Positions 7,968 to 51,557 of a stretch of DNA of 64,000 nucleotides are shown piece after piece (within the stretch, counting starts at the first letter, position 1; each line of letters begins with the position of its first letter). The DNA is taken from NCBI GenBank assembly GCA_934122395.1, contig CAKOWQ010000002.1:2595-66594 (forward strand), written 5' to 3'. The DNA is from an uncultured Bacilli bacterium (GTDB lineage: Bacteria; Bacillota_I; Bacilli_A; RF39; UBA660). Under the pieces are notes generated by a model. The model searched no databases. It was not told the DNA's origin and saw nothing but the letters and a program-made list of their open reading frames with translations. The position numbers were made by a program, and so were the translations under genes.

Positions 7968-8208
7968 TTTCTTTTCCTCCTTTTATTTCTTCGCTATTAC
8001 TTAAAAAAGCAATTATTTGTCTATTCTTAATTGCTTTCTTTAAATCTAATAAAATAATTATTTCATTACCATTTACATCTTGTATTTTTGTTAAATCATC
8101 TAATTTTATATTTAAAATATCTTTTTCAGTTTTAAATCCTGCTTTAAATATTTTCTCTAATACTTTTGTTATTTGACTTAAATTATACTTATTCATAGTT
8201 TTCCTCAC
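7960..8208 (-). CDS. Hypothetical protein (82 aa).
   Basis: ORF track. 8-nt overlap with the neighbouring ORF. No recognisable motif. Confidence 0.35.
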   Translation of the reverse strand: MRKTMNKYNLSQITKVLEKIFKAGFKTEKDILNIKLDDLTKIQDVNGNEIIILLDLKKAIKNRQIIAFLSNSEEIKGGKENE

Positions 8209-8866
8209 TTTCTAGTTCTAAAATATAAACTATTTGCTTTGTTTTATCAGTTTGACTACAAGTAATTAAAGTTAAAGTATTCTTTTTATTATCTCTATGA
8301 ATTACAACTTTTCCTGTCTTATCAACATCATATTTTCCTGCTACTTTATATGTATATTTAATATTATTAAAATAAACATAGGCAACATCATCATTGCTTA
8401 ATTTATATAGATTTTTAAAATATGATATATAACTATTTCCAGAATGAGCAGCAATTATAAGATTTCCATTTTTAACATCTGGCATATCACTACCCTTTAT
8501 TACTTGTAAGTTTTTATTAACATTATTACCTTTATCATTGATATTTAAAAATCCTCTTTTTACATTTATTTTAGGTATTTCAAGAACTCCAATATAACTA
8601 TAATTTGGTGTTTTCTTTTCTTCTTGTTTTGGTTGTTCTTGAGTATCTTCATCATCAATATCAACTTTTATTACTTCAACTTCTTCTTTACCAATATTTA
8701 AAAACTCTTGGGCTTTTTTATAATCTCTTAGTTCTATGTAATAGTTATAACCAATTCTACCTATATACATAAAAGCACCAGTTAAGAATATGAAAGAAGC
8801 AACTAGTTTAATTAGTTGCTCCCTTTTATTTACATTTTTATTTTCTTTTGTTCTTTTTAGAAACAT
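8189..8866 (-). CDS. Sortase (cysteine transpeptidase).
   Basis: N-terminal TM anchor. Active-site His region 'LIIAAHSG' and catalytic Cys motif 'TLTLITC' (TLxTC). Sits immediately downstream of, and overlapping, its likely substrate gene. Confidence 0.75.
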   Translation of the reverse strand: MFLKRTKENKNVNKREQLIKLVASFIFLTGAFMYIGRIGYNYYIELRDYKKAQEFLNIGKEEVEVIKVDIDDEDTQEQPKQEEKKTPNYSYIGVLEIPKINVKRGFLNINDKGNNVNKNLQVIKGSDMPDVKNGNLIIAAHSGNSYISYFKNLYKLSNDDVAYVYFNNIKYTYKVAGKYDVDKTGKVVIHRDNKKNTLTLITCSQTDKTKQIVYILELESEENYE

Positions 8867-11411
8867 AAAGAAATACCCCCATTCCTACTACCATACAAGT
8901 AACACTAATTACTGTATATAGTTTACTGTTATTAGCCATAGTGTTTGGTACTTCAACTATTTGTTCATTAGTTAAATTAGCTTTAACTATTTCTCCATTT
9001 TCTTTGATTTCAAACTCTATAACTTCATCTGTTATTTGGTAACCAGTTGCACTTTCTTTTTCAATAATATGTCCTTTTCCTATAAATAAATCTTTAATGA
9101 TAATTTGACCATTTTCATCAGTAAGTCCAGAGAATATTAAAGTAGATTCTATTGTTCCATCTTCTAGTTCTTTATCTGAATAGATTTCTATTAAAGTATT
9201 AGGAATTGGTTTACCACTAACTAAATCTGTTTTAGTAAATTCTAAAGTTCCTTTTTTATAATAGTTTTGTAATTCTACATCTTTAACTATTTCTTTAGTA
9301 TATTGATCTTTATACTTTAACTCAAAAGTATATATTTTTTCATCTAACACATGATTATTATCTGTTGATTTCTCTTTTATATAGTATTTTCCAAGCTCAA
9401 GCCCATCAATAGTTGCCTTACCATCAGCAGTAATAACAGTTGTTATCAATTCATCTTTTGAATATTTTTTCTTACCACTAACATAAATATCCTCGTTAGC
9501 ATAAAGTTCTAATTCAACTTCGCTTAATAATATCTTTTTGTATCCAAAAGTATTATTATCTATAATTAGCTTTTCTCCATATTTAGTGATATTTAATTTT
9601 CCTTTAACTCTTTCATTCGCAAACTTAACTACTAATAAGGCACCGTAATCTTTATCAACTAGTATCTCGCTACCTTCTCCAATATGGATTGGCATTGCTT
9701 CACTATTCCAAACATAACCATCTAAGACATGATTTTCTACTTCTTCTAAAAGAAAATCTCCAACTAGATTTGATGGTGTTATAATCACTCCATTTTCATC
9801 TGTTTCATATTCACATACTTTTTTAGCAGTTGGATATGTTATTGTTTGACAAACATATTCATTAGTTTTAGCATCTTTTATTTTAAACTTAATACCTGCT
9901 TTAGTTATTACTTCGCCTGTTTCTTTATCAGTTTTAATAACTTTTAATTTTGCCTCAATAGGAGCATTGCTAACTAATTTATAAATATCACTACCAGTAT
10001 TTTCATTTACTTCAACTTCAAAATCTTTTACCTTTTCATAATCTGGTGTTGAATTAATTTGTTTAAAAGTATATTTACCATAAGGTAAAGTTATTTTTGC
10101 ATATCCTTTATCATCAGTTGTGATAGTATCTGCTAAACAAGTATTACTGTCTTTCAATAATGAATTAGAATTACAATTATTTAAGTAAATCTCAAATGTT
10201 ATATTAAGCTCGCCTTTTAATATTCCAGTTGCTCCACTTGCAAATGTTTTAAATAATGTAACATCTGCTTCTATAACTTTTTCATATACTTTCACATTAG
10301 CAAGTAAATTGTCTTTATCTACTACAAATGAATATTTATTGTTTGTATCTAAAGTATATCCTTTACTAGGTGATAGTTCTTTTAAATAAAACTCCCCTAA
10401 TGCTGGTAAATAATCACTTATACCATATCCATTTTCATCTGTAGTAATTTCTCCAACCTTTTCGTTATTCAAGTTATATATACCATACTTTGCACCACCT
10501 AGCGTGGCGTTTCCTTGTGGAATATTATTTTTAGTTTCACTATCCACTTTATTTATCTCTACTCTGCCACCAACTGACTCTAACTCTATACTCTTAACGA
10601 CTGGGTCAGCATTTCCAACTCTCATAACATTTTGAGAATGGTTAGAATAATAAACTATTGGAGTTACATCATAATAAGATGGTTTTTTAACTAAATTAAC
10701 TTTAACATTTTCTATTGAATTAGATGTGATTGTTAAAGTGTTTCCATTTATACTTGCTACACCATTTTCTACTGATGAAATACTAAATTGACTTAATACT
10801 CCATTTGTATCTGTAAAATCCAGACTTTTACCTATTGGTAATTTAACTCCGTCAATATTAAAACTTGGTTTAGTATAATGTTTATTTAATAAATCTTCCA
10901 TCTCTGCTATTTCACTAGCAAATTTATTTGGTAAGTCATTTCCATTTAGTGTATCTGTAAATACAATTCTTGATGTAGGTACTGCTGTTCTCCATATCAT
11001 AACCTGAGTAATCACATACCATTTATTATTTGAATGGTCATATCCATTTTCTTTATATTGATAACCATAATATGCTAAAAGTGATATTCTTTGCCATTGT
11101 TCTTCTGTCATATTAAGATATACAGCAAAATCACTTCTAGCTATTTTATAATAAGGCAAATTATTATCTATATCTACATAAGGTTGTAGGCAATAGACGA
11201 ATTTATTATCCTCACTTCTTCTTATAAATCCTGCTTGTTGATACTTAATGTATCCATCTTCTCTGTATTTTTTAATAAAAATATTTGCTATCTTTTCAGA
11301 TGGCCAAATAGCTTGACCTTTATATTCTTCAGCATTTACTTTTGTAATGCCAAAAAATATCGTAAAAAAAAGTATGCCGATTAAAGCATACAAAGTCTTT
11401 GTTTTATTCAT
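8838..11411 (-). CDS. Cell-wall-anchored surface adhesin with Cna-B-type (prealbumin-like) repeat domains and a C-terminal sorting signal.
   Basis: Signal peptide 'MNKTKTLYALIGILFFTIFFGITKVNA'. Repeated 'TDENG..' Cna-B-like modules (e.g. 'TDENGYGISDYLPALGEFYLKELSPSKGYTLDTN', 'GLTDENGQIIIKDLFIGKGHIIEKESATGYQ'). C-terminus 'VPNTM' followed by a hydrophobic segment and 'KKNKRK' tail, a classic sorting-signal architecture with a non-LPXTG motif. Confidence 0.7.
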   Translation of the reverse strand: MNKTKTLYALIGILFFTIFFGITKVNAEEYKGQAIWPSEKIANIFIKKYREDGYIKYQQAGFIRRSEDNKFVYCLQPYVDIDNNLPYYKIARSDFAVYLNMTEEQWQRISLLAYYGYQYKENGYDHSNNKWYVITQVMIWRTAVPTSRIVFTDTLNGNDLPNKFASEIAEMEDLLNKHYTKPSFNIDGVKLPIGKSLDFTDTNGVLSQFSISSVENGVASINGNTLTITSNSIENVKVNLVKKPSYYDVTPIVYYSNHSQNVMRVGNADPVVKSIELESVGGRVEINKVDSETKNNIPQGNATLGGAKYGIYNLNNEKVGEITTDENGYGISDYLPALGEFYLKELSPSKGYTLDTNNKYSFVVDKDNLLANVKVYEKVIEADVTLFKTFASGATGILKGELNITFEIYLNNCNSNSLLKDSNTCLADTITTDDKGYAKITLPYGKYTFKQINSTPDYEKVKDFEVEVNENTGSDIYKLVSNAPIEAKLKVIKTDKETGEVITKAGIKFKIKDAKTNEYVCQTITYPTAKKVCEYETDENGVIITPSNLVGDFLLEEVENHVLDGYVWNSEAMPIHIGEGSEILVDKDYGALLVVKFANERVKGKLNITKYGEKLIIDNNTFGYKKILLSEVELELYANEDIYVSGKKKYSKDELITTVITADGKATIDGLELGKYYIKEKSTDNNHVLDEKIYTFELKYKDQYTKEIVKDVELQNYYKKGTLEFTKTDLVSGKPIPNTLIEIYSDKELEDGTIESTLIFSGLTDENGQIIIKDLFIGKGHIIEKESATGYQITDEVIEFEIKENGEIVKANLTNEQIVEVPNTMANNSKLYTVISVTCMVVGMGVFLYVSKKNKRK

Positions 11412-12173: not shown

Positions 12174-13139
12174 CTATCTTTCATTGCTTTCTTTTTCTCT
12201 CTTTTTTTGCAACCACCTCCCATAAAAACTAACTGCTTTAACAACATAATCTTCCTTTTCTTCATTTGTTGTAAGATTAGTTGGGAGTATATTATTTAAT
12301 TTGTCCATATTAACTTTTAGAGTTTGTATTTGATTAGGTTTTTCTTGCTCTAAAATAGTTTCCATATACTCTCTTGTAAGTTTATTATCTTTACTTAATC
12401 TTTTAAAATCTTGGGCTTGTGATAATGATGGAGTACAAGCAAAACATTCCATTATATCTAAAAGTTCTTTTTGTTCTTCTTCTTTTAAATAAGATATTTC
12501 AACTGCTGGACTTATTGCCATACTTGGAGATAATTTCAAAGCATCATTATCTACCATTTGAAGTATTTGTGGTATTAGTTCAGTTAGTCTAATATATCTA
12601 TGAACTTGTCTAGCACTTTCGTTGTTTTCCATACCTATTATATCAACAGTTTTTAACTTGTCGCCAACTTGGCGAGAAGTTGCAACTTTACCTTGATGAC
12701 TTAATGCTTCCATTTTTAATTTATAAGCAAATGCTTTCTCGCTTGGTAGTATCTTTTCTCTTTGCAAATTACTATCAACCATTATAATAGTTGCCTCATC
12801 ATCAGATAAATCTCTTACTATACAAGGTATTGTTTCTAATCCTGCTAACTCACTAGCAAACTTTCTTCTATGACCAGAAATCATTTCATATTTGCCATTT
12901 TCTTTTGGTCTAACTAATGTCGGCACTAATACGCCATTTTCACTAATACTTTCTGCCATTTGTTTCATATCTTCATTATCTATTACTTTAAATGGGTGTT
13001 TAGGGAAGTCATCTATATCATTTAAACTTATATTTACTACTTTTTCTTTTAATTTATCATCTCTCTCTTCTTGTGTTGAAAACAGGTCATCATCTAGTAA
13101 AATCTTTGGTAGAGGCATTTTTGTTTCTTTCTTTACCAT
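12174..13139 (-). CDS. parB: ParB-like partition protein (ParB/Spo0J N-terminal domain).
   Basis: 'GHRRKFASELAGLETIPCIV' ParB box II-like motif. Located directly downstream of parA with a short overlap. The true start may be the internal Met (MPLPKILL, ~13118). Confidence 0.7.
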   Translation of the reverse strand: MVKKETKMPLPKILLDDDLFSTQEERDDKLKEKVVNISLNDIDDFPKHPFKVIDNEDMKQMAESISENGVLVPTLVRPKENGKYEMISGHRRKFASELAGLETIPCIVRDLSDDEATIIMVDSNLQREKILPSEKAFAYKLKMEALSHQGKVATSRQVGDKLKTVDIIGMENNESARQVHRYIRLTELIPQILQMVDNDALKLSPSMAISPAVEISYLKEEEQKELLDIMECFACTPSLSQAQDFKRLSKDNKLTREYMETILEQEKPNQIQTLKVNMDKLNNILPTNLTTNEEKEDYVVKAVSFYGRWLQKKREKESNER

Positions 13140-13920
13140 TCTCCATTACCTCCTTTGCAAATAAGGTATATGAATCTGCTACCTTACTATTTTTATCATA
13201 AGAGAAAATACTTTCTCCATGAGATGTTGATTTTGCTACATTTACTGCCATAGGTATTTGAGTATTATATATCTTTACTTTACTTCCATAACTTTCTTGA
13301 AGTTCATATCTTACTTGATTAGGTAAAGTTGTTCTCTTATCTACTAGTGTAAGCAAAACACCATCTACCATCAAGTTTGGGTTTATTTGTTTTCTCACTC
13401 TTGAAATTGTTTGTAAAAATTGTCCCATACCTTTCGCAGCTAAAAACTGTGTTTGTACTGGAATAATTACTTTATCGGCACAAGCAAGAGCATTTATTGT
13501 TATCATACCTAAACTAGGCATACAATCTATCAGTATATAATCATACTTATCTTTATATTTAGATAATGTATTTCTCATAACACTTTCTCTACTCATTACA
13601 TTAACAAGTCCTACCTCTAATTGTGATAAATCTAAATTAGATGGTATTAAATCCACTTCTTCATTATGATGCAATATTACATCATCTATGTTTATATTGT
13701 CATCTCTAATAGTGGCACTCATTACATCTGCTAATGTAGTCTGTATTTTATCTAAATCAGTCCAACCCATGCAAGTAGTTAAATCTCCTTGTGGATCAGC
13801 ATCTACTAGTAATACTTTTTTTCCTCGTTTTGCTAATGCTACACCCAAATTAAAAGTGGTAGTTGTTTTACCAACTCCACCTTTTTGATTTGCAATAGCA
13901 TATATCTTACAATTATCCAC
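13090..13920 (-). CDS. parA: ParA/Soj-family partition ATPase (plasmid type, no N-terminal HTH).
   Basis: Deviant Walker A 'KGGVGKTTTT' and 'LLVDADPQGDLT'. 276 aa. Confidence 0.85.
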   Translation of the reverse strand: MDNCKIYAIANQKGGVGKTTTTFNLGVALAKRGKKVLLVDADPQGDLTTCMGWTDLDKIQTTLADVMSATIRDDNINIDDVILHHNEEVDLIPSNLDLSQLEVGLVNVMSRESVMRNTLSKYKDKYDYILIDCMPSLGMITINALACADKVIIPVQTQFLAAKGMGQFLQTISRVRKQINPNLMVDGVLLTLVDKRTTLPNQVRYELQESYGSKVKIYNTQIPMAVNVAKSTSHGESIFSYDKNSKVADSYTLFAKEVMENGKERNKNASTKDFTR

Positions 13921-15565: not shown

Positions 15566-16504
15566 TCACTCCTTTTCAATGTTAGCAATATTTTCCCAAT
15601 TTTCTGGAAATCCCATTCTATCTAATACTTTAGATATTGGTATAGAATATAAATTATAATTTAAATTATCTAATGCATGATCTATTTCAATAACCATATT
15701 TTTTATTTCAGTATCTGTTAATAAGTGTTTCATTATAATTATTAAAGCAAATAAATCGTTTTTACCATATTTGTATTCACCATCTACTTTTTCAATATTT
15801 AATAGATTATGATATATGGTATTACCTATAATTTTTTGTGTTTTGTTTTCAAACAATATATCTTCGTGTGCACATAAATTACGATAGTTAGATAAGATTG
15901 GTAAATATATACCTAAAGCATTAATATCCATACCATATATTTCAGCAATTGCAATTCTATCATCTATCCTTAGTATAGAGTATAATTCACTAACTATTCC
16001 AAAAGATAATACTTTAACTAATACCCATAACGGAATATATCCATAATTACTTAGATAGTGAACAGTAGCAGAATGTTGTCTACCATTAACATGAATTTGT
16101 CTTTTCATCTTCTTTATTAAATCATTTACTTGTCTTGATTTTTCAGGACTAGTATCAAAGTTTTTAGGCTTTAAATAATCATGTTCTTTGTAACCATATT
16201 TTTTAGATAAACGATAAGATATAATAGACTTTAGATTGTTTTCCACAATTAATAAATTTTTAAAAATAATATTACGGAATTGGCGGTCAAACAAAAATAA
16301 ACTATACAACTCCTCGAAAGTAGTTCCTTCTATAAATTTTTTAGGATCATTACTACTCATAAATAAATGTCTATATCCACTTAAGAAAAAGTAATTCTCT
16401 CTTAATAGTACTTCTTTTGCATAGACTTCGTCATTAATTACCAAGCCCTTATGCTTTAAGATTTCTATTTGTTCATCTAAAGTTTTGAACTGCTTTGTCT
16501 TCAT
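15566..16504 (-). CDS. Abortive-infection protein, Abi_2 (AbiD/AbiF-like) family.
   Basis: N-terminus 'LDEQIEILKHKGLVINDE...FLSGYRHLF' and conserved 'PLWVLVKVLSFGIVSELY ... YRNLCAHEDILF' (RNxxAH motif) typical of PF07751-type Abi proteins. Confidence 0.65.
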   Translation of the reverse strand: MKTKQFKTLDEQIEILKHKGLVINDEVYAKEVLLRENYFFLSGYRHLFMSSNDPKKFIEGTTFEELYSLFLFDRQFRNIIFKNLLIVENNLKSIISYRLSKKYGYKEHDYLKPKNFDTSPEKSRQVNDLIKKMKRQIHVNGRQHSATVHYLSNYGYIPLWVLVKVLSFGIVSELYSILRIDDRIAIAEIYGMDINALGIYLPILSNYRNLCAHEDILFENKTQKIIGNTIYHNLLNIEKVDGEYKYGKNDLFALIIIMKHLLTDTEIKNMVIEIDHALDNLNYNLYSIPISKVLDRMGFPENWENIANIEKE

Positions 16505-18271: not shown

Positions 18272-18697
18272 TTAACGTTTTGAGAATTGTGGTGCACGTC
18301 TTGCTTTTTTCAATCCTGGTTTCTTACGTTCTTTAATTCTTGAATCTCTAGTAATAAATCCTGCTGGTTTTAATGCTTTTCTGAAACTATTTTCGCTATC
18401 GCTTGATGTAGTACTATCATATTCTAATAATGCTCTAGTAATACCTAAACGAATTGCTCCAGTTTGTCCTGAGAATCCTCCACCTTTAACTTCAACTTCT
18501 ACATCAAAGATTTCGTTAGTTTTAGTTAATTCAAGTGGTTGCATTAAATCCATAACTAAAGTTTCATAAGGTAGGTATTCGTGTACATCTTTACCATTAA
18601 CAGTAACTTTTCCTTTACCTGGAATTAATTTAACTTTAGCAATACTAGCTTTTCTTCTACCAGTACCGTAATATACGTTTTTCTTATCTTTTGCCAT
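18272..18697 (-). CDS. rpsI: 30S ribosomal protein S9.
   Basis: '[14 protein letters not shown] ... [20 protein letters not shown]'. Terminator hairpin GGAAGATATTATTATCTTCC downstream (~18225-18262). Confidence 0.9.
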
Positions 18698-18710
18698 CAG
18701 TTATTCCTCC

Positions 18711-19142
18711 TTATTTAACTTCCATAATTTCTGGTTTTTGAGCAGCATGTGGATGATTTGCACCTTTGTATACGAATAATTTCTTATACATTTGTCTTCC
18801 TAATCTGTTATGAGGAAGCATTCCTTTAACAGCTCTTTCAACCATTTCTTCAGGATATTGTTCTTTCATTACTTTAGCAGTTCTTTCTCTTAATCCACCA
18901 GTATACATTGAGTGATTATAATACATCTTGTCTTCTAATTTGTTACCAGTTAAATTAGCTTTTTCTGCATTGATAATTATAACATTATCACCGCAATCGA
19001 TATGTGGAGTATAAGTTGGTTTATGTTTACCACGAAGAATATGTGCAGCTTTAGCAGCTACTCTACCTAATGATACTCCTTCTGCATCGATTACATACCA
19101 TTTACGTTCAATTGTTTCTTTCTTTTGCATATAGCTTTTCAT
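18711..19142 (-). CDS. rplM: 50S ribosomal protein L13.
   Basis: '[41 protein letters not shown]'. Confidence 0.9.
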
Positions 19143-19255
19143 AATTTTTCTCCTTTACTTAAGTCCAGCTTCCCACGGCCAAACTTATGTGGGGATTTCA
19201 ATGTACCGATTAGAATTATACTAAAATCGTGCTTATTTGTCAACGAATTTCTATA
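19143..19255 (-). promoter_or_regulatory. sigma-A promoter (TTGACA-18-TATAAT, plus-strand coordinates 19215-19244) and structured L13 leader preceding rplM-rpsI.
   Basis: Minus-strand sequence TTGACAAATAAGCACGATTTTAGTATAAT, then a GC-rich leader 'CCCCACATAAGTTTGGCCGTGGGAAGCTGG' and RBS AAGGAG before the ATG. Confidence 0.55.
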
Positions 19256-19990
19256 TTATTTATAAGAAACTTCTACTAAATATAATCCTTCTGGTTTAGC
19301 TGTATAAACATACTTATTATCTTTAGTTCCATCTAATAATTCTTTAATAATATTACTTGGTAATTTACCTTTACCTATTTTGAGTAAGGTCCCAACCATA
19401 TTTCTTACTTGATATTTCATAAAGCCATTTCCTGTAAAACTAAAAACCAATGTATCTTCTTCTTTAGAAAGTGAAGCTGAATAGATAGTTCTAACATAGT
19501 TTTCTTTGATCGCTTCATTAGAGGTAAACACTTTAAAATCAAAAGTTCCTATAAAACTCTTGATTGATTCTTGCATCTTTGAAATATCAAGTTCTTTATT
19601 GTATTGATAAATGTAATTTCTCTTTATTGGATCATATTCTCCAGTATTCAAATAATATTTATATGTTTTTTCTTTTACCATAAATCTTGCATGGAAATAA
19701 TCATCAACACTTAAAGCATCTATAACATGAATATCTTCTGGTAATAAACTATTTAGTGCACATTTAAGTTTATACAAAGTAATATTAACCTCTAAATTAA
19801 AATGAGCAGTTTGTCCTAGAGCATGTACTCCCCTATCAGTTCTACCAGAAGAAAATATTCTAGTTTTAGTGTGATTATTAATATTAAATAAAGCATCTTC
19901 TAAGCAGCCCTCAACTGTTCTTTTATTAGGTTGTTTTTGATAACCATAAAAATTGGTTCCATCATATGAAAATTTAATTAAATAACGCAT
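19256..19990 (-). CDS. truA: tRNA pseudouridine(38-40) synthase.
   Basis: 'YDGTNFYGYQKQPN...RTVEG ... SGRTDRGVHALGQTAHF' TruA motifs. Conserved position upstream of rplM. Confidence 0.85.
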   Translation of the reverse strand: MRYLIKFSYDGTNFYGYQKQPNKRTVEGCLEDALFNINNHTKTRIFSSGRTDRGVHALGQTAHFNLEVNITLYKLKCALNSLLPEDIHVIDALSVDDYFHARFMVKEKTYKYYLNTGEYDPIKRNYIYQYNKELDISKMQESIKSFIGTFDFKVFTSNEAIKENYVRTIYSASLSKEEDTLVFSFTGNGFMKYQVRNMVGTLLKIGKGKLPSNIIKELLDGTKDNKYVYTAKPEGLYLVEVSYK

Positions 19991-20000
19991 ATTTCACCTT

Positions 20001-20642
20001 CTATTTATATAGTATTGTTAGTATAAATATTAAAATTGAAGCAATCATGAATGTATTATCAACGTTTCCCCATTTCATATTCAAAATACTTGTTTTCTTA
20101 TCATGAAATTTATAAAAACTTAACTTATTTCTATATGATACATCTTGTAAATCATAGTTAGTTTTGATTAAAGCTTGTTTAACTATATAATTACTGTACT
20201 TTCTTCTTGCATATTTATCAATATCATCATAAACATGCATGTTGTTATCAAATTTTTTACTTTTATAACAAGAGTCAAGATACAATTGCATTGATTTTTT
20301 ATTTCTGCTTTTATAAAAAAGCTTATCTACAATATACATTTTCTCTTTATTATTTGTCATTTCTTTGGCTATTAGATAAAGTACATATAACAATATTAAT
20401 TTCACAATGATTAATAAAAACGGATGAAGATAGTAAAACATAGATGCTACCACGAGAATTAATGATAATTGAAGTGCTTCAAAGTTTTTAAGAATAGCAG
20501 ATATTAAAATACTAAGACCTATTATTATAAAAACAATGTAAACGTTTTCAACCATAATAATAGATAACATTATTAATAGTAAACTTATAAATTTAGCATA
20601 TAAATTCAGATCTTTAAGGTTATTATATACTTTTGTATACAT
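20001..20642 (-). CDS. Polytopic membrane protein at the canonical ecfT position (highly divergent).
   Basis: Four or five hydrophobic helices. Overlaps the upstream degenerate ATPase gene by 20 nt. No EcfT ARG signature recognisable. Confidence 0.4.
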   Translation of the reverse strand: MYTKVYNNLKDLNLYAKFISLLLIMLSIIMVENVYIVFIIIGLSILISAILKNFEALQLSLILVVASMFYYLHPFLLIIVKLILLYVLYLIAKEMTNNKEKMYIVDKLFYKSRNKKSMQLYLDSCYKSKKFDNNMHVYDDIDKYARRKYSNYIVKQALIKTNYDLQDVSYRNKLSFYKFHDKKTSILNMKWGNVDNTFMIASILIFILTILYK

Positions 20643-21393
20643 CTTTCATCACATCCCTAACATCTTTTCTATAAAATAAATTTATATTCTTTTCTTTTTT
20701 AGCTTTATATGTCAAAAGAGAAAAATATGGTGTATCTATTTTTTTATTAATGAGCATTTCTACTTGTTGATATATATCATTAGTATTTCCTAATATCACT
20801 TCATTTTGGTTAATAATTGCTACTCTTTCAGTTAATTCATATAAAATATTACTATCATTACTAGTAACGATTACTAATACTCCATCATTTTTTAACTTAT
20901 TTATTAATTTCTTAATTATTTTTTTATTATTTAAATCCAACCCATTCATTATGTCTTTAAAAATTACAATTTTAGGTTTATAAATTAAGTTAGCAACTAT
21001 TTGAACAAAATACTTTTCAGTTGTTGAAAGTGTTGGTACGATTCTTCTTAAAATACTTTCATCTAATCCAACCATTAGTAGTAATTCTTCGATTCCTTGT
21101 TTTATCGTGTGACTTTTATACTCTCTTATTTTAGCATTAAAGAGTATTTCTTCTAAAACTTTAGACGTATAAAAACTTTTATCACTATCTATAATTGCAA
21201 TTAATTTTGAATTATATTTCCTATAAATACGCTCATCGATAAAGATATGACCACTTGAAATTAAAGATGGTTCTTTAATTATTTTTAGTAAATTATTAGC
21301 ATTATATATTCCATTCACATAATTGTTATCTAATTTGAAAGATATATTACTCAATTTATCTTTGTATGAAATCTTTTCAAAACTTACTTCCAT
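20623..21393 (-). CDS. ABC-ATPase-like protein with all catalytic motifs lost (ecfA'-position pseudo-ATPase).
   Basis: Vestigial signature 'LSTTEKYFVQIVANLIYKPKIVIFKDIMNGLD' aligns to LSGGQKQRVAIARAL...ILILDEP..LD. No Walker A, no Walker B Glu, no H-loop. Confidence 0.5.
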   Translation of the reverse strand: MEVSFEKISYKDKLSNISFKLDNNYVNGIYNANNLLKIIKEPSLISSGHIFIDERIYRKYNSKLIAIIDSDKSFYTSKVLEEILFNAKIREYKSHTIKQGIEELLLMVGLDESILRRIVPTLSTTEKYFVQIVANLIYKPKIVIFKDIMNGLDLNNKKIIKKLINKLKNDGVLVIVTSNDSNILYELTERVAIINQNEVILGNTNDIYQQVEMLINKKIDTPYFSLLTYKAKKEKNINLFYRKDVRDVMKDVYKSI

Positions 21394-22187
21394 AGCTTAT
21401 CCACCATCCCATCAACATCAGTAATTATCTCGTCTAGCACACCATAGAAATTAAGTTTTAATGATAAATCAATCATTGAGGGAATAATAAATCCTAATTT
21501 TGATAGCTCATTATCTTGGTGTAATACTTCATCGGGATTTCCTTCAATCTTAACATTCTTATCGCCTAAAACTATAACTTTATCAAACAGCAATATATTA
21601 TCAAGACTACTACTGGTGATGCAAAAAGTTGTGTCTTTTTTTACTTCTTGCAATATTTTGAATAATTCTTTACATTCACTTTCGTTTAATCTAGATAAAA
21701 TATTATCTAAAAATACTATTTTAGGTCTATGAATTAATGAAGTTGCAATTAATACTTTTACCTTTTCATATTCTGTTAATTCATCTATCTTTTTATTTAT
21801 ACAGTTTTCTAATCTAAATAAATTCCTTATTTCATACAACCTATTAGTTATATCTTTTTTCTTATAATTAAGGTTTTCTAGAGGAAATGCTAATTCATCT
21901 ATTACTTTCTCAAACAAGAATTTATTTTGATCATCAAAAAATACAACACCTATTGACAGCATATATTCTTTTAAGTTTTCCTTATTTAAATAAATATCAT
22001 TTACTTGTATACAATTATTACTTGGAAGTATTCCAGTAAGTAGGTAAATCAATGTTGTCTTACCACTAGAATTGGTTCCAAGAATTAAGTTTATTGTTCC
22101 TTTTTTTATCGAAAAATGTAGATTATTAAAAATTTGTTTATTTTCGTAAGAAAAATTTAAGTCATTAACTTGTAACAAATCTTCCAT
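21384..22187 (-). CDS. EcfA-like ABC ATPase with intact Walker A but degenerate signature, Walker B and H-loop.
   Basis: Walker A 'GTNSSGKTT'. 'ELTEYEKVKVLIATSL' replaces LSGGQ. 'KIVFLDNILSRLN' has Asp but no catalytic Glu. Confidence 0.55.
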   Translation of the reverse strand: MEDLLQVNDLNFSYENKQIFNNLHFSIKKGTINLILGTNSSGKTTLIYLLTGILPSNNCIQVNDIYLNKENLKEYMLSIGVVFFDDQNKFLFEKVIDELAFPLENLNYKKKDITNRLYEIRNLFRLENCINKKIDELTEYEKVKVLIATSLIHRPKIVFLDNILSRLNESECKELFKILQEVKKDTTFCITSSSLDNILLFDKVIVLGDKNVKIEGNPDEVLHQDNELSKLGFIIPSMIDLSLKLNFYGVLDEIITDVDGMVDKLWK

Positions 22188-23570: not shown

Positions 23571-25328
23571 TTATTGTTGAGTCCAGTATTTTACAACATC
23601 ACTATTAGTACTTAAAGGCATAGGATCAGGCATTTCTAATTTTGCAATTACAGGAATTTTAAATGCTGTACCAAAACCTAAACATGTACCAGATTGTAAT
23701 CCTTTTTGTTTTTCTACTATTTCAGTATTAATATTAGGTATCATATTTTTAATATATTCTACATCTAAAGGATGATTAGTTTTGAAAATTATAAAGTTTG
23801 AACATTGAGATATAACAGTATCAGATAATTCAACTGGTCTTTGAGATATGACTCCTAACATTACACCATATTTTCTTCCTTCTTTAGCTACTCTATTAAA
23901 TATATTATAGCCATATAGGAAGTCATCATTATCATTGTTTCTTATATATCTATGCGCTTCTTCTACTAAAATATTAAATGGTACTGAGCCTCTATTTGGA
24001 ATTCTTTTAGCATAATCAAATATTATCCTTGTGAATATCTTTGTAATTACTGCTCCCATAGAATCGTCCATATCCTCTAAATTAATATTTACTATTTGAC
24101 ATTTTCTACCATTTGGTGCAAAGAGATAATTCATGTATTGATTTATGTCAATGTATTCTGGAAAAGTGAAGATATCACTATGAGGTCCAGTTAACAATGA
24201 ATGTAATCTTACTCTTATTGTCATTGCATCTGCATAAGTTTGTTTATTTTTAAACCATCCATCAGAGATAAGTGTAAATTCTAATGCTTTTTCAAAGTCA
24301 TTAAGTGTAAAATATGAATTACTACTTGGTTCATAACTGTCAAATTTACTATCAATAAATTTTGATACATATTCAGTAATTAAAATACCTTCAGTAAATG
24401 TACCCGTCTTATCAATATTAAAACAATCTCTAAATAATCTCGTATAACCAATTCCTTGTATTTCAGTATTAAGGCTAAATTGATCGGTAGTACATGATTC
24501 AACTATTTTAAATATATCATTTTTCTTATTTGCTGGTGTTGAATCACTGAATAACACTCCCATAATAGCTTTAGCTATAATATGATTCTTATAATTAATT
24601 GCATTTTCACCAACTTCTGCAAAAGATCTAGCAAGTTTCAATGTTTTTTCGATCATAGGAATTTGAGAATGTGAATTAGCCATTAAAAGAGATGATATAT
24701 CAGTAACATTTAATAACCATACTGGTATTCTTAACTTCTCCATAGTATTATCGGTTGTACTAGTTGTAAAAACACGATAATTAAAATTAGGATTAATAGT
24801 ATTTAAGTTAGAAAACGCATTAATATATTCTCCTGATACATCAAACATTATAAAATTAGAACGATATGGAACTACATTCGGGTTTTTGAAAACGTTTTGA
24901 ATTATTCGTGCAAGTCCACATGATTTACCACTACCACTATTACCAAATATTGCGAAATGATTGCTAAAAAACTTATTTACATCTAAGTATATTGGATGAT
25001 CATTATAAAAGGGGCTTGTTCCTAATAAAAGAGCATTACTCTCAGTCTTTCCTAAAATTAAAGGAATTTCGTTTTCTGTTAATGGTCTTATTTCAGCATC
25101 TAATAATGGCTTTCTGATAACTCCACCATATAATTCACCATTTTTAAATTCACCTAATAATTTTATTTTAACTTTTCTATCTTTAATTTCTTCTATTTCA
25201 CCTAATAATTGTTTTTCGACATCTCCAATTACAACATGAGCATTAAGTAAATTGTTTTTAACTTCAACATCTTCTTTAAGACTAACATATATGTTAGTAT
25301 CATTCATAAATTCAATCTTATTAAACAT
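23571..25328 (-). CDS. HerA/FtsK-superfamily ATPase (DUF87-like), 585 aa.
   Basis: Walker A 'FGNSGSGKS', Walker B 'FNILVEEAHRYI', C-terminal 'VISQRPVELSDTVISQCSNFIIFK' typical of HerA/DUF87. 11-nt gap from ylxM and 18 nt to ffh. Confidence 0.65.
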   Translation of the reverse strand: MFNKIEFMNDTNIYVSLKEDVEVKNNLLNAHVVIGDVEKQLLGEIEEIKDRKVKIKLLGEFKNGELYGGVIRKPLLDAEIRPLTENEIPLILGKTESNALLLGTSPFYNDHPIYLDVNKFFSNHFAIFGNSGSGKSCGLARIIQNVFKNPNVVPYRSNFIMFDVSGEYINAFSNLNTINPNFNYRVFTTSTTDNTMEKLRIPVWLLNVTDISSLLMANSHSQIPMIEKTLKLARSFAEVGENAINYKNHIIAKAIMGVLFSDSTPANKKNDIFKIVESCTTDQFSLNTEIQGIGYTRLFRDCFNIDKTGTFTEGILITEYVSKFIDSKFDSYEPSSNSYFTLNDFEKALEFTLISDGWFKNKQTYADAMTIRVRLHSLLTGPHSDIFTFPEYIDINQYMNYLFAPNGRKCQIVNINLEDMDDSMGAVITKIFTRIIFDYAKRIPNRGSVPFNILVEEAHRYIRNNDNDDFLYGYNIFNRVAKEGRKYGVMLGVISQRPVELSDTVISQCSNFIIFKTNHPLDVEYIKNMIPNINTEIVEKQKGLQSGTCLGFGTAFKIPVIAKLEMPDPMPLSTNSDVVKYWTQQ

Positions 25329-25339
25329 ATTTATACCTC

Positions 25340-25633
25340 TTACAATAATTCTTTTATTTTTTCTAACAAATCGTCTTCTATTTTACCTTTTAAAAGTTCA
25401 GTTATCTTGTCTTTTTTTGTTACTAAGTTAAGAATAGATTCCATTTCTAGTAATCGTTCCTCAACTATTTTTAATTGATTATGAACGGCATTACGGCTTA
25501 TATTATTTGCTTCGGCTATTTCACCTAATGAATAATTACTGCAATAATAATCCTCAAAATATTCTTGCTGTTTTTGTGTTAAGAAATCTTTATAGTAGTC
25601 ATATAAAATATTTAATTTTATTCTTTTGTCCAT
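25340..25633 (-). CDS. ylxM: YlxM/UPF0122 small DNA-binding protein of the SRP operon.
   Basis: 'LYDYYKDFLTQKQQEYFEDYY..SLGEIAEANNISRNAVHNQLKIVEERL' matches YlxM HTH. Confidence 0.8.
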   Translation of the reverse strand: MDKRIKLNILYDYYKDFLTQKQQEYFEDYYCSNYSLGEIAEANNISRNAVHNQLKIVEERLLEMESILNLVTKKDKITELLKGKIEDDLLEKIKELL

Positions 25634-48957: not shown

Positions 48958-49710
48958 TTATTTTGTTTTCTTTTTCTGAATATTATATGTTATTTTTGCT
49001 AAAGACTTTGTGGATAAAAATCTCTCAAAGAAATAAGCGCACTTCATTTTAAATCCTGGTACAATAACAAGTTTTTTATTAAACATTTCATCTATGGCAT
49101 ATTTTGCCACGAATTCACTAGTTAATGGTTTTACAGAGAATTTCACATTTGCTACTTTATTGAAATTAGTATCAACAGGTCCTGGGCATAAACATGATAT
49201 TACTACATTAGATTTGTCTCTACGTAATTCTTCTGATATTGAAGTAGTTAATCTTAATACATAAGCTTTGGTACTATAATATGTTGCCATTAATGGTCCC
49301 GGAACAAAAGCCGCTGATGATGCAACATTAAGAATATAACCACTATTTCTCTTCTTCATGTCTTTTAAGAATAACTTAGTTAGAATGTGAACAGCTTTAA
49401 TATTTAAATCAATCATATTTAATTCTTTAGATAAATCTGTCTCATCAAATTTTCCAAAATCACCAAAACCTGCATTATTAATTAATATGTCTATATTTTC
49501 GCTTTTACACAATACATATACTTCTTTTACTTTATTTTCAAGAGATAAATCAGCAACAATAATTTTGACATCAGTCTTTAAATTTTCTTGCATTTTTTGT
49601 AATTTTTCTTTATCTCTAGATACTAAAATTAAATCATGACCTAAATCACTTAAATACTTAGCCATTTGGTATCCAATACCAGATGAAGCTCCTGTTATCA
49701 ATGCTTTCAT
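48958..49710 (-). CDS. Short-chain dehydrogenase/reductase (SDR).
   Basis: 'MKALITGASSGIG' (TGxxxGIG), 'NNAG', 'YSTKAY' (YxxxK). Confidence 0.8.
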   Translation of the reverse strand: MKALITGASSGIGYQMAKYLSDLGHDLILVSRDKEKLQKMQENLKTDVKIIVADLSLENKVKEVYVLCKSENIDILINNAGFGDFGKFDETDLSKELNMIDLNIKAVHILTKLFLKDMKKRNSGYILNVASSAAFVPGPLMATYYSTKAYVLRLTTSISEELRRDKSNVVISCLCPGPVDTNFNKVANVKFSVKPLTSEFVAKYAIDEMFNKKLVIVPGFKMKCAYFFERFLSTKSLAKITYNIQKKKTK

Positions 49711-49754
49711 AAAACCATCTCCAGCCTCATTATACCATAGAAAAAAGGCCTTTA

Positions 49755-51131
49755 CTAGACCTCTTCACTTTCTTCTATATCACTAGAGTCATAATTTTTA
49801 CTAAATTTTTGTAAAAACTCTTGAAGTTTTTCCCTTTCTTCATCTGATATTTCATTTATATCTTTAGCATTATCAGTATCTATAGATGGAACATCCTCAT
49901 TTAGATAAATATTATTAACGGAACTTAATACTATCTTATTGTCCTCAGTATTTCCTATAGATATTTTAGTTTCTAGTTTATATTCTTTATTTTTAGTAAC
50001 TGTGCTAATCTTAAATGTTATATCGCCTAGAGCTTCACCATTATAAGTACAAGATAATGCTAAGTCAAACGTAGAATTATTTTTAACTAATGTACCACTT
50101 ATGGATGCATTACCTTCATCATTTACTACAGTGATGTTTATGTTTGCCTTATCTTTTGAAGTATATGCTTTTTCAAATTTGATACTTGAACCGTTCATTT
50201 CTGCAGTTACTGCAGTAGTATTATGTTTGTTCTTATTTTGATAAAAATCTACCGATAAAGACATATCAACTGCTAGACCATCTGAAGTTGATAACTCTAT
50301 TCTTGTTACATCACCAAATACTTTGCAATAGAACGACAATACTAGATATTCATCATTAGATGTTGATTCACCCATTGATTTAACTGCATCTTCTAAATCA
50401 CTCTTAGTAATATTTTTATCAATTTTTTGTAATACCTTTATTGCTTTAGTATCATTACTTAATGCTTTTAGATAATCTTTAGATATTGAAGTAATCATCT
50501 TATCAGTCATTTTTAGTGATAGTTTATACATGCTTACTTTCTTACCATCTAATGTTAAAGCCTCTTTAGTTTTAGTTAAATCTTTGTTAGTAATATTTTT
50601 AGAGATACTCTTTTTTAAGTGATCAGTTAATATTTTTAGATCTTTTTTTGATAGTTTAGATATTTCTTCATAGTTAACACTATCAACTACTTCTTGATTA
50701 GATATACTGTCTTCAATATCAGTATAATAAAACTCATCCATTACATCTTTGATCTTGAAAAATACTTTTTTCTCATCTAATAGGCCAATGAGTCCTAGAT
50801 TTTCATTAATTTCGCCTTCAACTTTTCCATCTAAATCTACATATAATTGATTACTATTATTAAAATATAAATCACCAGATACACCCATCTTATTATCTAT
50901 ATAAGTTAAAGCGCTATTAGTAGTTATTTTGTATTTATCACTACCATCTAACCCTTCTATAAATGTTTTATCACCCTCGTTAACTTTATTAACATAAGAT
51001 AATACACGTCCTAGTGATGTTTCAAACATATATTTATTGGAATTCATTAAATAGACTCCAGTACCAATCATTGCGATCGACGCAATTAAAAGGCAAATAC
51101 TAACAATTTTCTTAGTCATTACACTACACAC
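49755..51131 (-). CDS. Membrane-anchored extracytoplasmic protein, unknown function.
   Basis: N-terminal TM 'IVSICLLIASIAMIGTGVYL', then a 420-aa polar domain with an acidic C-terminus. Confidence 0.45.
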   Translation of the reverse strand: MCSVMTKKIVSICLLIASIAMIGTGVYLMNSNKYMFETSLGRVLSYVNKVNEGDKTFIEGLDGSDKYKITTNSALTYIDNKMGVSGDLYFNNSNQLYVDLDGKVEGEINENLGLIGLLDEKKVFFKIKDVMDEFYYTDIEDSISNQEVVDSVNYEEISKLSKKDLKILTDHLKKSISKNITNKDLTKTKEALTLDGKKVSMYKLSLKMTDKMITSISKDYLKALSNDTKAIKVLQKIDKNITKSDLEDAVKSMGESTSNDEYLVLSFYCKVFGDVTRIELSTSDGLAVDMSLSVDFYQNKNKHNTTAVTAEMNGSSIKFEKAYTSKDKANINITVVNDEGNASISGTLVKNNSTFDLALSCTYNGEALGDITFKISTVTKNKEYKLETKISIGNTEDNKIVLSSVNNIYLNEDVPSIDTDNAKDINEISDEEREKLQEFLQKFSKNYDSSDIEESEEV

Positions 51132-51179
51132 CTCTTTATTCTAAGTAAATTATACTAATAATTGAGAAAATTGTCTATA

Positions 51180-51206
51180 AAAAAAGAATGACTTTTGTCA
51201 TTCTAA
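51180..51206 (-). terminator. Rho-independent terminator ending the alpha operon after rplQ.
   Basis: AGAATGACAAAAGTCATTCTTTTTTT on the minus strand. Confidence 0.65.
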
Positions 51207-51212
51207 TTATAA

Positions 51213-51557
51213 TTAATCTACTAATTCTAATCTAACAAGTAACGCATCGTCTCCTCTACGTTCATCCATTTTTAGAATTCTTGTATATCCACCATTTCTA
51301 TTTGCATACTTTGGTGCAAGTTCATCAAATACTTTTTTAACAGCAGTAGTATCATTATGAAGGAAAGCTAGTGCTTTTCTTCTTGCAACTAATCCACCAT
51401 CTTTACCATAAGTTATCATCTTATCAACAAATTTACTAGCTTCTTTAGCTCTTGTATCTGTTGTTACTACAAATCCATGCATGATAACGTCTTTAGTAAG
51501 ATTAGCAAGCATGCTTCTTCTATGTTTGTTATCAACACCTAATTTTCTATATGCCAC
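51213..51557 (-). CDS. rplQ: 50S ribosomal protein L17.
   Basis: 'HRRSMLANL...TRAKE...RNGGYTRI'. Confidence 0.9.
   Translation of the reverse strand: MAYRKLGVDNKHRRSMLANLTKDVIMHGFVVTTDTRAKEASKFVDKMITYGKDGGLVARRKALAFLHNDTTAVKKVFDELAPKYANRNGGYTRILKMDERRGDDALLVRLELVD

Follow-up and report, generated by a model that had tools for sequence, protein, structure and literature searches.

A conserved, ECF-derived module with degenerate ATPases, predicted to be catalytically dead, at the ancestral ecfA1-ecfA2-ecfT locus of uncultured gut Bacilli

What becomes of a transport motor when both of its ATPases lose the residues on which ATP hydrolysis depends? The question is raised by three neighbouring genes in a 64,000-nucleotide stretch of contig CAKOWQ010000002.1, from an uncultured Bacilli bacterium, that is referred to here as the window. 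Bacillota take up vitamins mainly through energy-coupling factor (ECF) transporters, which are considered strictly ATP-driven and are under pursuit as targets for antibacterials, and the three genes occupy the place at which the energising module of such a transporter would be expected. All lie on the minus strand. The first encodes A1' (21384..22187, 267 aa, an open reading frame (ORF) call), an EcfA1-derived pseudo-ATPase predicted to bind ATP without hydrolysing it; the second encodes A2' (20623..21393, 256 aa), an EcfA2-derived pseudo-ATPase with no intact nucleotide-binding or catalytic motif; and the third encodes T' (20001..20642, 213 aa), identified by profile alignment and a structural model as a shortened, strongly diverged EcfT homologue. 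The A1' and A2' frames overlap by 10 nt and those of A2' and T' by 20 nt, and translation table 11 gives a clean reading in a window whose GC content runs from 25 to 33%. We consider it probable that the three genes are orthologous descendants of a group-II ECF energising module that has turned into a pseudo-ATPase complex maintained by selection. The locus would then hold a version of a familiar system that is conserved yet catalytically dead, in a probably vitamin-auxotrophic lineage in which the ATPase pair outlives its membrane partner.

Descent from an ECF module is established by the best family matches of the proteins and by synteny with canonical ecfA1-ecfA2-ecfT-truA in sister genomes. 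Downstream of T', in a minus-strand block (18272..19990) recognised from translations and Pfam labels, lie truA (19256-19990), rplM (18711-19142) and rpsI (18272-18697). When one genome per GTDB species was scanned with the family alignment, 80 loci were obtained (labelled L0xx below), and in all of them these three genes stand in identical order and so fix the syntenic position. The initial annotation had set the three genes at the canonical ecfA1-ecfA2-ecfT place before truA-rplM-rpsI, and both the ORFs and the synteny with canonical sisters bear this out; the operon order at the slot between rplQ and truA-rplM-rpsI is that of an ECF module, with the rplQ side rearranged in the window. Among the 182 NCBIfam families that A1' matches, the highest score goes to TIGR04520 (ECF_ATPase_1), at 145.7 bits against an EcfA1 equivalog cutoff of 315 that A1' does not reach, and the protein aligns with the PDB EcfA1 chains 8bms_A and 5jsz_A at E 2e-23. 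Likewise, the best NCBIfam match of A2' is TIGR04521 (ECF_ATPase_2), at 70.6 bits and thus well short of the EcfA2 equivalog cutoff of 330, and its Pfam ABC_tran score of 17.3 bits lies under the cutoff of 25.

The state of each ATPase motif was read from residue-level alignment to solved EcfA chains and to 80 orthologues. A1' retains the A-loop Tyr14 and an intact Walker A, GTNSSGKTT (residues 37-45; 22053..22079, minus strand). The pattern G....GK[ST] recurs in 36 of the 40 T'-bearing orthologues, with G42, K43 and T45 invariant in one alignment. The former signature reads LTEYE in place of LSGGQ (residues 137-141; 21765..21779, minus), in keeping with a family consensus of LTxxE, as against LSGGE or LSGGQ at canonical sister loci. 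Walker B, IVFLDN (residues 157-162; 21702..21719, minus), preserves its Asp, as do 40/40 T'-bearing A1' orthologues, and has Asn for the catalytic Glu, a residue found in 0/40 of the same proteins (N, D, C, S or Q instead). The Q-loop Gln has become Phe and the H-loop His has become Ser, leaving Walker A and the Walker B Asp alone from the motif set of a competent ATP-binding cassette (ABC) ATPase. The initial annotation credited this protein with Walker A only; the losses it listed, of LSGGQ, the Walker B Glu and the H-loop, all stand, and the word "only" falls, since the Walker B Asp and the A-loop Tyr are also retained. For A2', the claim that every motif had gone was well founded. Its P-loop-region remnant, VNGIYNANNLLKII (residues 26-39; 21277..21318, minus), carries a 5-residue deletion at the GxxGxGKST place in the HMMER alignment to 1vpl_A, where canonical sisters read GPSGSGKTT in the 80-locus alignment; its Walker B remnant, IVIFKD (residues 142-147; 20953..20970, minus), has Lys for Asp and Asp for Glu; its signature is LSTTE, its H-loop His is Asn and its Q-loop Gln is lost, so that none of the competent motif set is intact. 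The possibility that catalytic residues had simply been misaligned by eye is set aside by these alignments, in which both sites lack the residues of hydrolysis. The catalytic motifs have been lost from both composite ATP sites. In a head-to-tail dimer of the nucleotide-binding domains, site I pairs the P-loop of A1' with the signature of A2' and would at most bind ATP, and site II, made up of the A2' P-loop and the A1' signature, is destroyed.

The ancestry of the membrane partner is less apparent from single sequences. T' has no match in Pfam, in NCBIfam or among PDB sequences (phmmer and a PDB profile search), and the EcfT/CbiQ model PF02361 finds no sequence match in the window T' or in the L014, L016, L017 and L047 types. 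A HMMER profile search with T' against 1.84 billion representatives returned 47 clusters at 50% identity, all 190-217 aa long save two fragments and one spurious repeat protein, and canonical EcfT was not among these matches. Profile-profile comparison against EcfT does reveal homology. With hhalign, the T' family profile aligns with the lineage's canonical EcfT at 93.6% probability (E 2e-7, 201 columns), and a chain through an intermediate group is stronger still: 99.3% (E 1e-20) from the window group to the L017 group, and 98.5% (E 4e-15) from the L017 group to canonical EcfT. From an alignment of 53 sequences AlphaFold2 produced a confident model, with a pLDDT (predicted local distance difference test) of 88.3 and a pTM (predicted template-modelling score) of 0.73. 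In a Foldseek search of 350,542 PDB chains with this model, the best eight matches were all EcfT/CbiQ (8bms_C, 9kym_C, 6zg3_D, 7nnu_D, 7nnt_D, 5x3x_q, 5x3x_Q and 5x41_F), at probabilities of 0.85-1.0 and query-normalised TM-scores (template-modelling scores) of 0.50-0.57, the ninth match having a probability of 0.06. An earlier model, from a shallow 20-sequence alignment, had a pLDDT of 66 and gave a Foldseek result that was not significant (E 0.33), with EcfT ranked first. The topology seen in hydropathy and in the model is EcfT-like, with four N-terminal transmembrane helices, two long cytoplasmic helices and one C-terminal transmembrane helix, in a protein some 40-50 residues shorter than canonical EcfT. 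By profile-profile homology and by its modelled fold, T' is an EcfT homologue, and all three proteins accordingly trace to an ECF module and to no unrelated family.

The resemblance does not extend to the coupling motifs. The transmembrane partner had been described as lacking the EcfT Ala-Arg-Gly signatures, and in the profile alignments both canonical Arg positions are indeed substituted. Where the first coupling helix ends, residues 142-148 read DKYARRK (20199..20219, minus) and align with canonical SQASRG (SQASRG to DKYA) with the Arg out of register, and the end of the second, RNKLSFY (residues 171-177; 20112..20132, minus), places Ser175 at the Arg of canonical VRLY (MEVRLY to NKLSFY), both as aligned by hhalign; the two Arg-containing motifs of the Ala-Arg-Gly/Ser type are thus missing from T'. 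R146 and R147 are near-invariant in the close subgroup only. Further downstream of the second coupling helix, the C-terminal register KKTSILNMKWGNVD fits canonical KRTxYRxxKWxxxD. Arg146, Arg147 and Arg171 lie near the substituted positions and might compensate for them.

Is this state peculiar to one genome? The 80 loci all come from metagenome-assembled genomes of uncultured "Bacilli", "Tenericutes" or "Mollicutes", and they include Clostridium sp. CAG:451, CAG:710, UBA660, UBA5348, Candidatus Scybalousia and the closed 1.31-Mb chromosome OZ006981.1 (L030 type), with CAG:451 and CAG:710 among the genomes lacking T; the nearest GTDB representative to the window is CAKPHC01, whose A1' is 73% identical; CAG-451, CAG-710 and UBA660 we take to belong to the order RF39 in GTDB. 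Human-gut (Hadza) metagenomes contain identical copies of the window's locus, on contigs as long as 231 kb. Several records (L018, L028, L051, L077, L083, L088; L021, L029) are titled "uncultured Muribaculaceae bacterium" despite a Gram-positive-type ribosomal and ECF locus, and Candidatus Scybalousia is filed under Bacteroidales in the NCBI taxonomy; such labels look misassigned. With A1' as query, 265 homologues were retrieved; in the 120 listed, whose identities fall as low as 39%, degeneracy is a conserved feature in its own right, the consensus reading GxNxxGKTT, LTxxEK and LLLD[N/D], with Thr or Ser in the H-loop position.

Across the 80 loci three states can be distinguished. In 11 loci the ATPase motifs are canonical or partly degenerate and a Pfam-recognised CbiQ gene (80-96 bits) is present, directly after A2 in nine of them and after an extra ORF in L048 and L087. 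In 38 loci and the window the ATPases are degenerate and the third gene, of 192-222 aa, has no Pfam match. In the remaining 31 loci the ATPases are degenerate and there is no T at the locus: A1'A2' directly abut truA, as Pfam confirmed for L062 and L078, and no T-like ORF was found within ~6 kb. These states form a graded series. Every motif is intact in both ATPases of L045 (LSGGEK, ILILDE, ITITHD); L034, L042 and L044 have lost the catalytic Glu or His of A1 and keep A2 and the A1 signature intact, an arrangement exactly like that of ABC heterodimers with one degenerate and one consensus site; and L041, L046, L052 and L053 have lost the A1 signature as well. The L017 type has a 3-residue deletion in the A2 P-loop (GDNKT) and a shortened T, and retains the A2 Q-loop and the Walker B Asp-Glu, which are lost in addition in the window type; the final step of the series is the disappearance of the T gene. 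A neighbour-joining tree of truA, rplM and rpsI, which carries no support values, places the canonical loci outside one degenerate clade and suggests, as roughly as a three-protein tree can, that T was lost independently at least 3-4 times inside it. T has been lost repeatedly, and A1'A2' have been kept. The two loci with the extra ORF stand somewhat apart from the series: in L048 (6819-8558) and L087 (6811-8615) the ORF after ecfA1 is unlike EcfA2, and an additional ORF of 283-301 aa precedes the CbiQ gene; this may point to a subunit that was replaced or added.

The degenerate genes are intact and under selection. All 69 degenerate species loci have undisrupted ORFs, and the ratio of nonsynonymous to synonymous substitution (dN/dS, by the method of Nei and Gojobori) between the window and L089, at an unsaturated dS of 0.47-0.81, is 0.10 for A1', 0.25 for A2' and 0.08 for T', with truA, the control, at 0.115. 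Pairs lacking T give similar values: 0.11 (A1') and 0.13 (A2') for L062-L055, 0.12 and 0.06 for L059-L061, and 0.14 and 0.12 for L067-L074. The whole range across relatives, 0.06-0.25, is comparable to truA and indicates purifying selection. The degenerate state is thus conserved over some 70 species, with all three genes under purifying selection. Pseudogene decay is rejected on these ratios together with the integrity of the ORFs.

Conservation is also unevenly distributed within the proteins. In both degenerate groups conservation peaks, for A1' and A2' alike, in the C-terminal segment, which in EcfA-EcfA' structures is the constitutive dimerisation domain (Y248, V262, L265, W266 and K267 in A1'; P222, K235, L239, D244, D247, K250, D251, Y253 and V256 in A2'), and the P-loop region of A1' remains conserved as well. 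A third region behaves differently according to the presence of T'. The groove that follows the Q-loop of A1' (residues 90-115), which in known structures touches the EcfT coupling helices, scores 0.57 against 0.47 overall where T' is present, and 0.34 against 0.41 overall in loci without T.

Taken together, these observations argue for a nucleotide-occupied scaffold or switch in place of a transport motor. Given that the C-terminal domains are the best-conserved parts of both proteins, A1' and A2' would still form a constitutive heterodimer; given that the groove is selectively conserved only in lineages keeping T', the dimer would in this genome be anchored to the membrane on T' through the A1' groove. 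A1' has kept its P-loop along with the A-loop Tyr and the Walker B Asp, which suggests that it binds ATP. The single site that it forms would be permanently "degenerate", lacking a catalytic base, an H-loop, the Q-loop Gln and a signature from the partner, and the second site would bind no nucleotide at all. With neither site working, the complex could not go through the cycle of ATP hydrolysis by which S-components are expelled and docked again. Further, A1'A2' are under selection in 31 species with no T at the locus, and their function is therefore probably T-independent and so not classical vitamin import. Of the two alternatives offered by the initial annotation, extreme divergence or a repurposed pseudo-ATPase complex, the second is the better supported, as the degenerate state is conserved and under purifying selection.

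Several points weigh against this reading. That catalysis is dead, that ATP is bound, that the ATPases heterodimerise and that they bind T' is in each case predicted from sequence, and some members of the family have Asp or Gln at the catalytic position, residues that in other ABC proteins allow slow hydrolysis. Because a motif in the C-terminal part of A1' served to retrieve the loci, lineages devoid of the A1'A2' pair are invisible to the survey, and that part of the A1' C-terminal conservation which falls at residues 235-244 is a product of the scan pattern and no independent evidence. "T-less" means that no T gene lies within ~6 kb, and T may have been relocated elsewhere; the tree on which the count of losses depends was built on three proteins and has no support values. 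Finally, a second intact ECF module and its S-components may or may not exist beyond the window and the flanks searched. The search of the 64-kb window and of the flanks of the 80 loci (~1 Mb) turned up neither an S-component gene nor a second ECF module; the small membrane ORFs in these regions are TraX, ZIP, LrgA/B, SecY and a Zn-peptidase.

What the complex does instead can be framed in more than one way. A tentative proposal, which we hold to be possible and no better than that, is that A1'A2' form a new kind of ECF-derived pseudoenzyme pair of nucleotide-binding domains (NBDs), with no working ATP site, in a housekeeping role that needs neither T nor transport, such as that of an ATP-occupancy sensor or a structural regulator. 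Such a role would explain the survival of A1'A2' in ~31 species after deletion of the membrane subunit, and, if it is true, a large, vitamin-auxotrophic clade of gut Bacilli imports its vitamins with no ECF motor at all.

We think it unlikely, though not far-fetched, that the module persists as a passive docking platform, on which A1'A2'T' would dock S-components whose toppling delivers vitamins by facilitated diffusion, with metabolic trapping giving the direction and ATP occupancy of the single A1' site perhaps gating the process. The whole EcfT architecture of T', both long coupling helices included, its dN/dS of 0.08 and the conservation of the A1' groove where T' is present would all suit such a platform, as would the needs of the organism if it is RF39-like, as we presume, for RF39 is described as genome-reduced and without vitamin biosynthesis (PMC6784871), and its members must import vitamins. 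However, T-dependent docking does not explain the equal selection on A1'A2' in the 31 species with no T at the locus, neither canonical Arg position of the window T' retains its Arg, and the 64-kb window and the ~1 Mb of flanking loci showed no S-component gene, though such genes are normally scattered over the genome. Moreover, docking and release in ECF transporters normally need an ATP-driven change of shape (PMC10368641).

The idea that the locus still encodes an ATP-driven ECF motor whose catalytic residues have merely drifted past recognition in a fast-evolving, AT-rich, reduced genome is highly improbable. It could appeal to a genome of 27% GC, to proteins that are full-length, co-oriented and translationally coupled as in canonical modules, and to the Walker A and Walker B Asp kept in A1'. 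Yet base composition is no guide to the state of the motifs: median GC is 0.285, 0.280 and 0.278 in the three states, canonical and degenerate loci alike, L045 is fully canonical at 26.5% GC, and sisters of the same GC (~28%) keep canonical motifs, so that AT-biased drift is rejected as a cause and the extreme divergence proposed in the initial annotation is insufficient. Nor does drift sit well with a P-loop physically deleted from A2', with the loss of both signatures, both H-loops and the two catalytic Glu residues, which leaves neither composite site with a catalytic base or a signature clamp, or with substituted residues that are themselves conserved. We know of no ABC ATPase that works without P-loop, signature, H-loop and catalytic Glu elements.

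Equally hard to credit is a decaying relic, in which non-functional remnants are tolerated inside an essential operon for the sake of translational coupling to truA, rplM and rpsI: stepwise erosion of the motifs, final deletion of T in several lineages and the faster evolution of A2' relative to its neighbours (dN/dS 0.25) would be expected of one, but the ORFs are intact in 69/69 degenerate species loci at ratios near that of truA, T-less lineages included, conservation is strong at specific residues and in the C-terminal domains, genomes of ~1.3 Mb (L030) shed useless DNA fast, and T was cleanly excised while A1'A2' stayed. A defence-system ATPase was also considered and rejected, PADLOC giving only weak generic ABC matches that do not exceed 47 bits, where the ECF ATPase model scores 146 bits.

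Comparison with known systems sharpens the picture of a selection-maintained pseudo-ATPase complex. The group-II ECF modules EcfA-EcfA'-EcfT of Lactobacillus delbrueckii (5JSZ/8BMS) and L. brevis (4HUQ) share with the window the gene order and the slot before truA-rplM-rpsI; A1' and A2' match the EcfA1 and EcfA2 equivalogs best, down to the ECF-specific C-terminal dimerisation segment ending in LWK, and T' has the EcfT fold. In contrast to these modules, there is here no catalytic Glu, H-loop His or LSGGQ in either site, A2' has no P-loop, T' is shorter with both coupling-motif Arg residues substituted, and all three proteins fall far under the curated family cutoffs. A second likeness is to the heterodimeric ABC proteins TM287/288, BmrCD, TAP1/2, CFTR and ABCB11, in which the degenerate site lacks the catalytic Glu, has a non-canonical H-loop and meets a degenerate signature in the partner, as does the site of A1' P-loop and A2' signature. 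Absence of the catalytic Glu is a hallmark of non-hydrolysing degenerate sites (PMC7544095, PMC3971661), and in TM287/288-type heterodimers ATP is bound stably at such a site and not hydrolysed. Degenerate sites have, however, been described for exporters that retain one consensus site (PMC3971661, PMC7756269), and heterodimers of this type always keep one hydrolysing consensus site to drive transport, whereas no consensus site is left in A1'A2'.

Two further precedents come from ECF biology itself. In Listeria monocytogenes the T-like FmnA and the S-like EetB have been re-used for flavin export (PMC9973259); these are extra paralogues beside normal, active EcfA and EcfA', whereas here the ancestral module has lost its catalytic motifs with no extra paralogue in evidence. 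In a working transporter, binding of ATP and then its hydrolysis drive expulsion and re-docking of the S-component, and an E-to-Q "locked" module (2EQ, 8BMS), in which the catalytic Glu of both ATPases is replaced by a non-acidic residue, has its hydrolysis abolished (PMC10368641). The T subunit of that structure, 8bms_C, is the best structural match of T'. The 2EQ mutant nonetheless keeps its signatures, P-loops and H-loops and closes on two ATP, elements that are gone from A1'/A2', and the pair probably cannot form a closed sandwich dimer. Searches of the literature turned up no account of degenerate ECF ATPases or of an ECF module degenerate throughout. More broadly, a large and prevalent clade of uncultured gut Bacilli carries at the ancestral locus, alone and under purifying selection, what looks like the motif-dead descendant of this motor, which raises the questions of how these organisms acquire vitamins and what role an ABC NBD heterodimer with no catalytic site can play. 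The graded intermediates, from two consensus sites through one degenerate site to none and then to loss of T, amount to a ready-made evolutionary dissection of ECF coupling, and the series supplies candidates for the biochemistry of non-catalytic scaffold or switch roles of ABC domains.

Around the module, the neighbourhood in the window departs from that of its relatives on the upstream side. In relatives the order is rplQ-(x)-SDR-[A1][A2][T]-truA-(x)-rplM-rpsI. Here the block of rplQ, a 458-aa gene and SDR (48958..51557, minus), which in relatives adjoins A1' upstream, lies ~27 kb off, and ffh is the upstream neighbour of A1'. The truA-rplM-rpsI order given in the initial annotation holds downstream; upstream, ffh stands in the window instead of rplQ. 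The 458-aa protein has no Pfam match. The rearrangement that puts ftsY-ylxM-HerA-ffh upstream of A1' is lineage-specific and common to L009-L013 and L070. Within this ftsY-ylxM-ffh cluster a lone HerA/DUF87 ATPase (23571-25328, minus; PADLOC HerA, 349.7 bits) sits between ylxM (25340-25633) and ffh, with no partner nuclease or SIR2 gene adjoining it; a 584-aa gene, the same size as HerA, occupies that position in L010, L011, L013 and L070 and is not found in L009 and L012. On the other side of the locus, a TraX-family membrane gene (223 aa, Pfam TraX 123-136 bits) directly follows rpsI in the T-less loci L055 and L059-L065 of the CAG-451 group, at ~9300-10000.

Elsewhere in the window, an open frame of more than 2100 aa with Eco57I-type methylase and SNF2/ResIII helicase domains (1-~6300, minus) runs off the window start, and beside it lie genes for a sortase (8189-8866), for a thioester adhesin of TED/SpaA type (8838-11411) and for ParB/ParA (12174-13920); together these look like an integrated conjugative or mobile element. 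A contig of the same species, L002, differs downstream of HtrA, and the region is thus strain-variable. Finally, an Abi_2 (abortive-infection-like) gene (15566-16504, minus) lies immediately upstream of the HtrA-type protease and holds the same position in distant relatives (L007, 18381-19334), which is unusual for a supposed defence gene.

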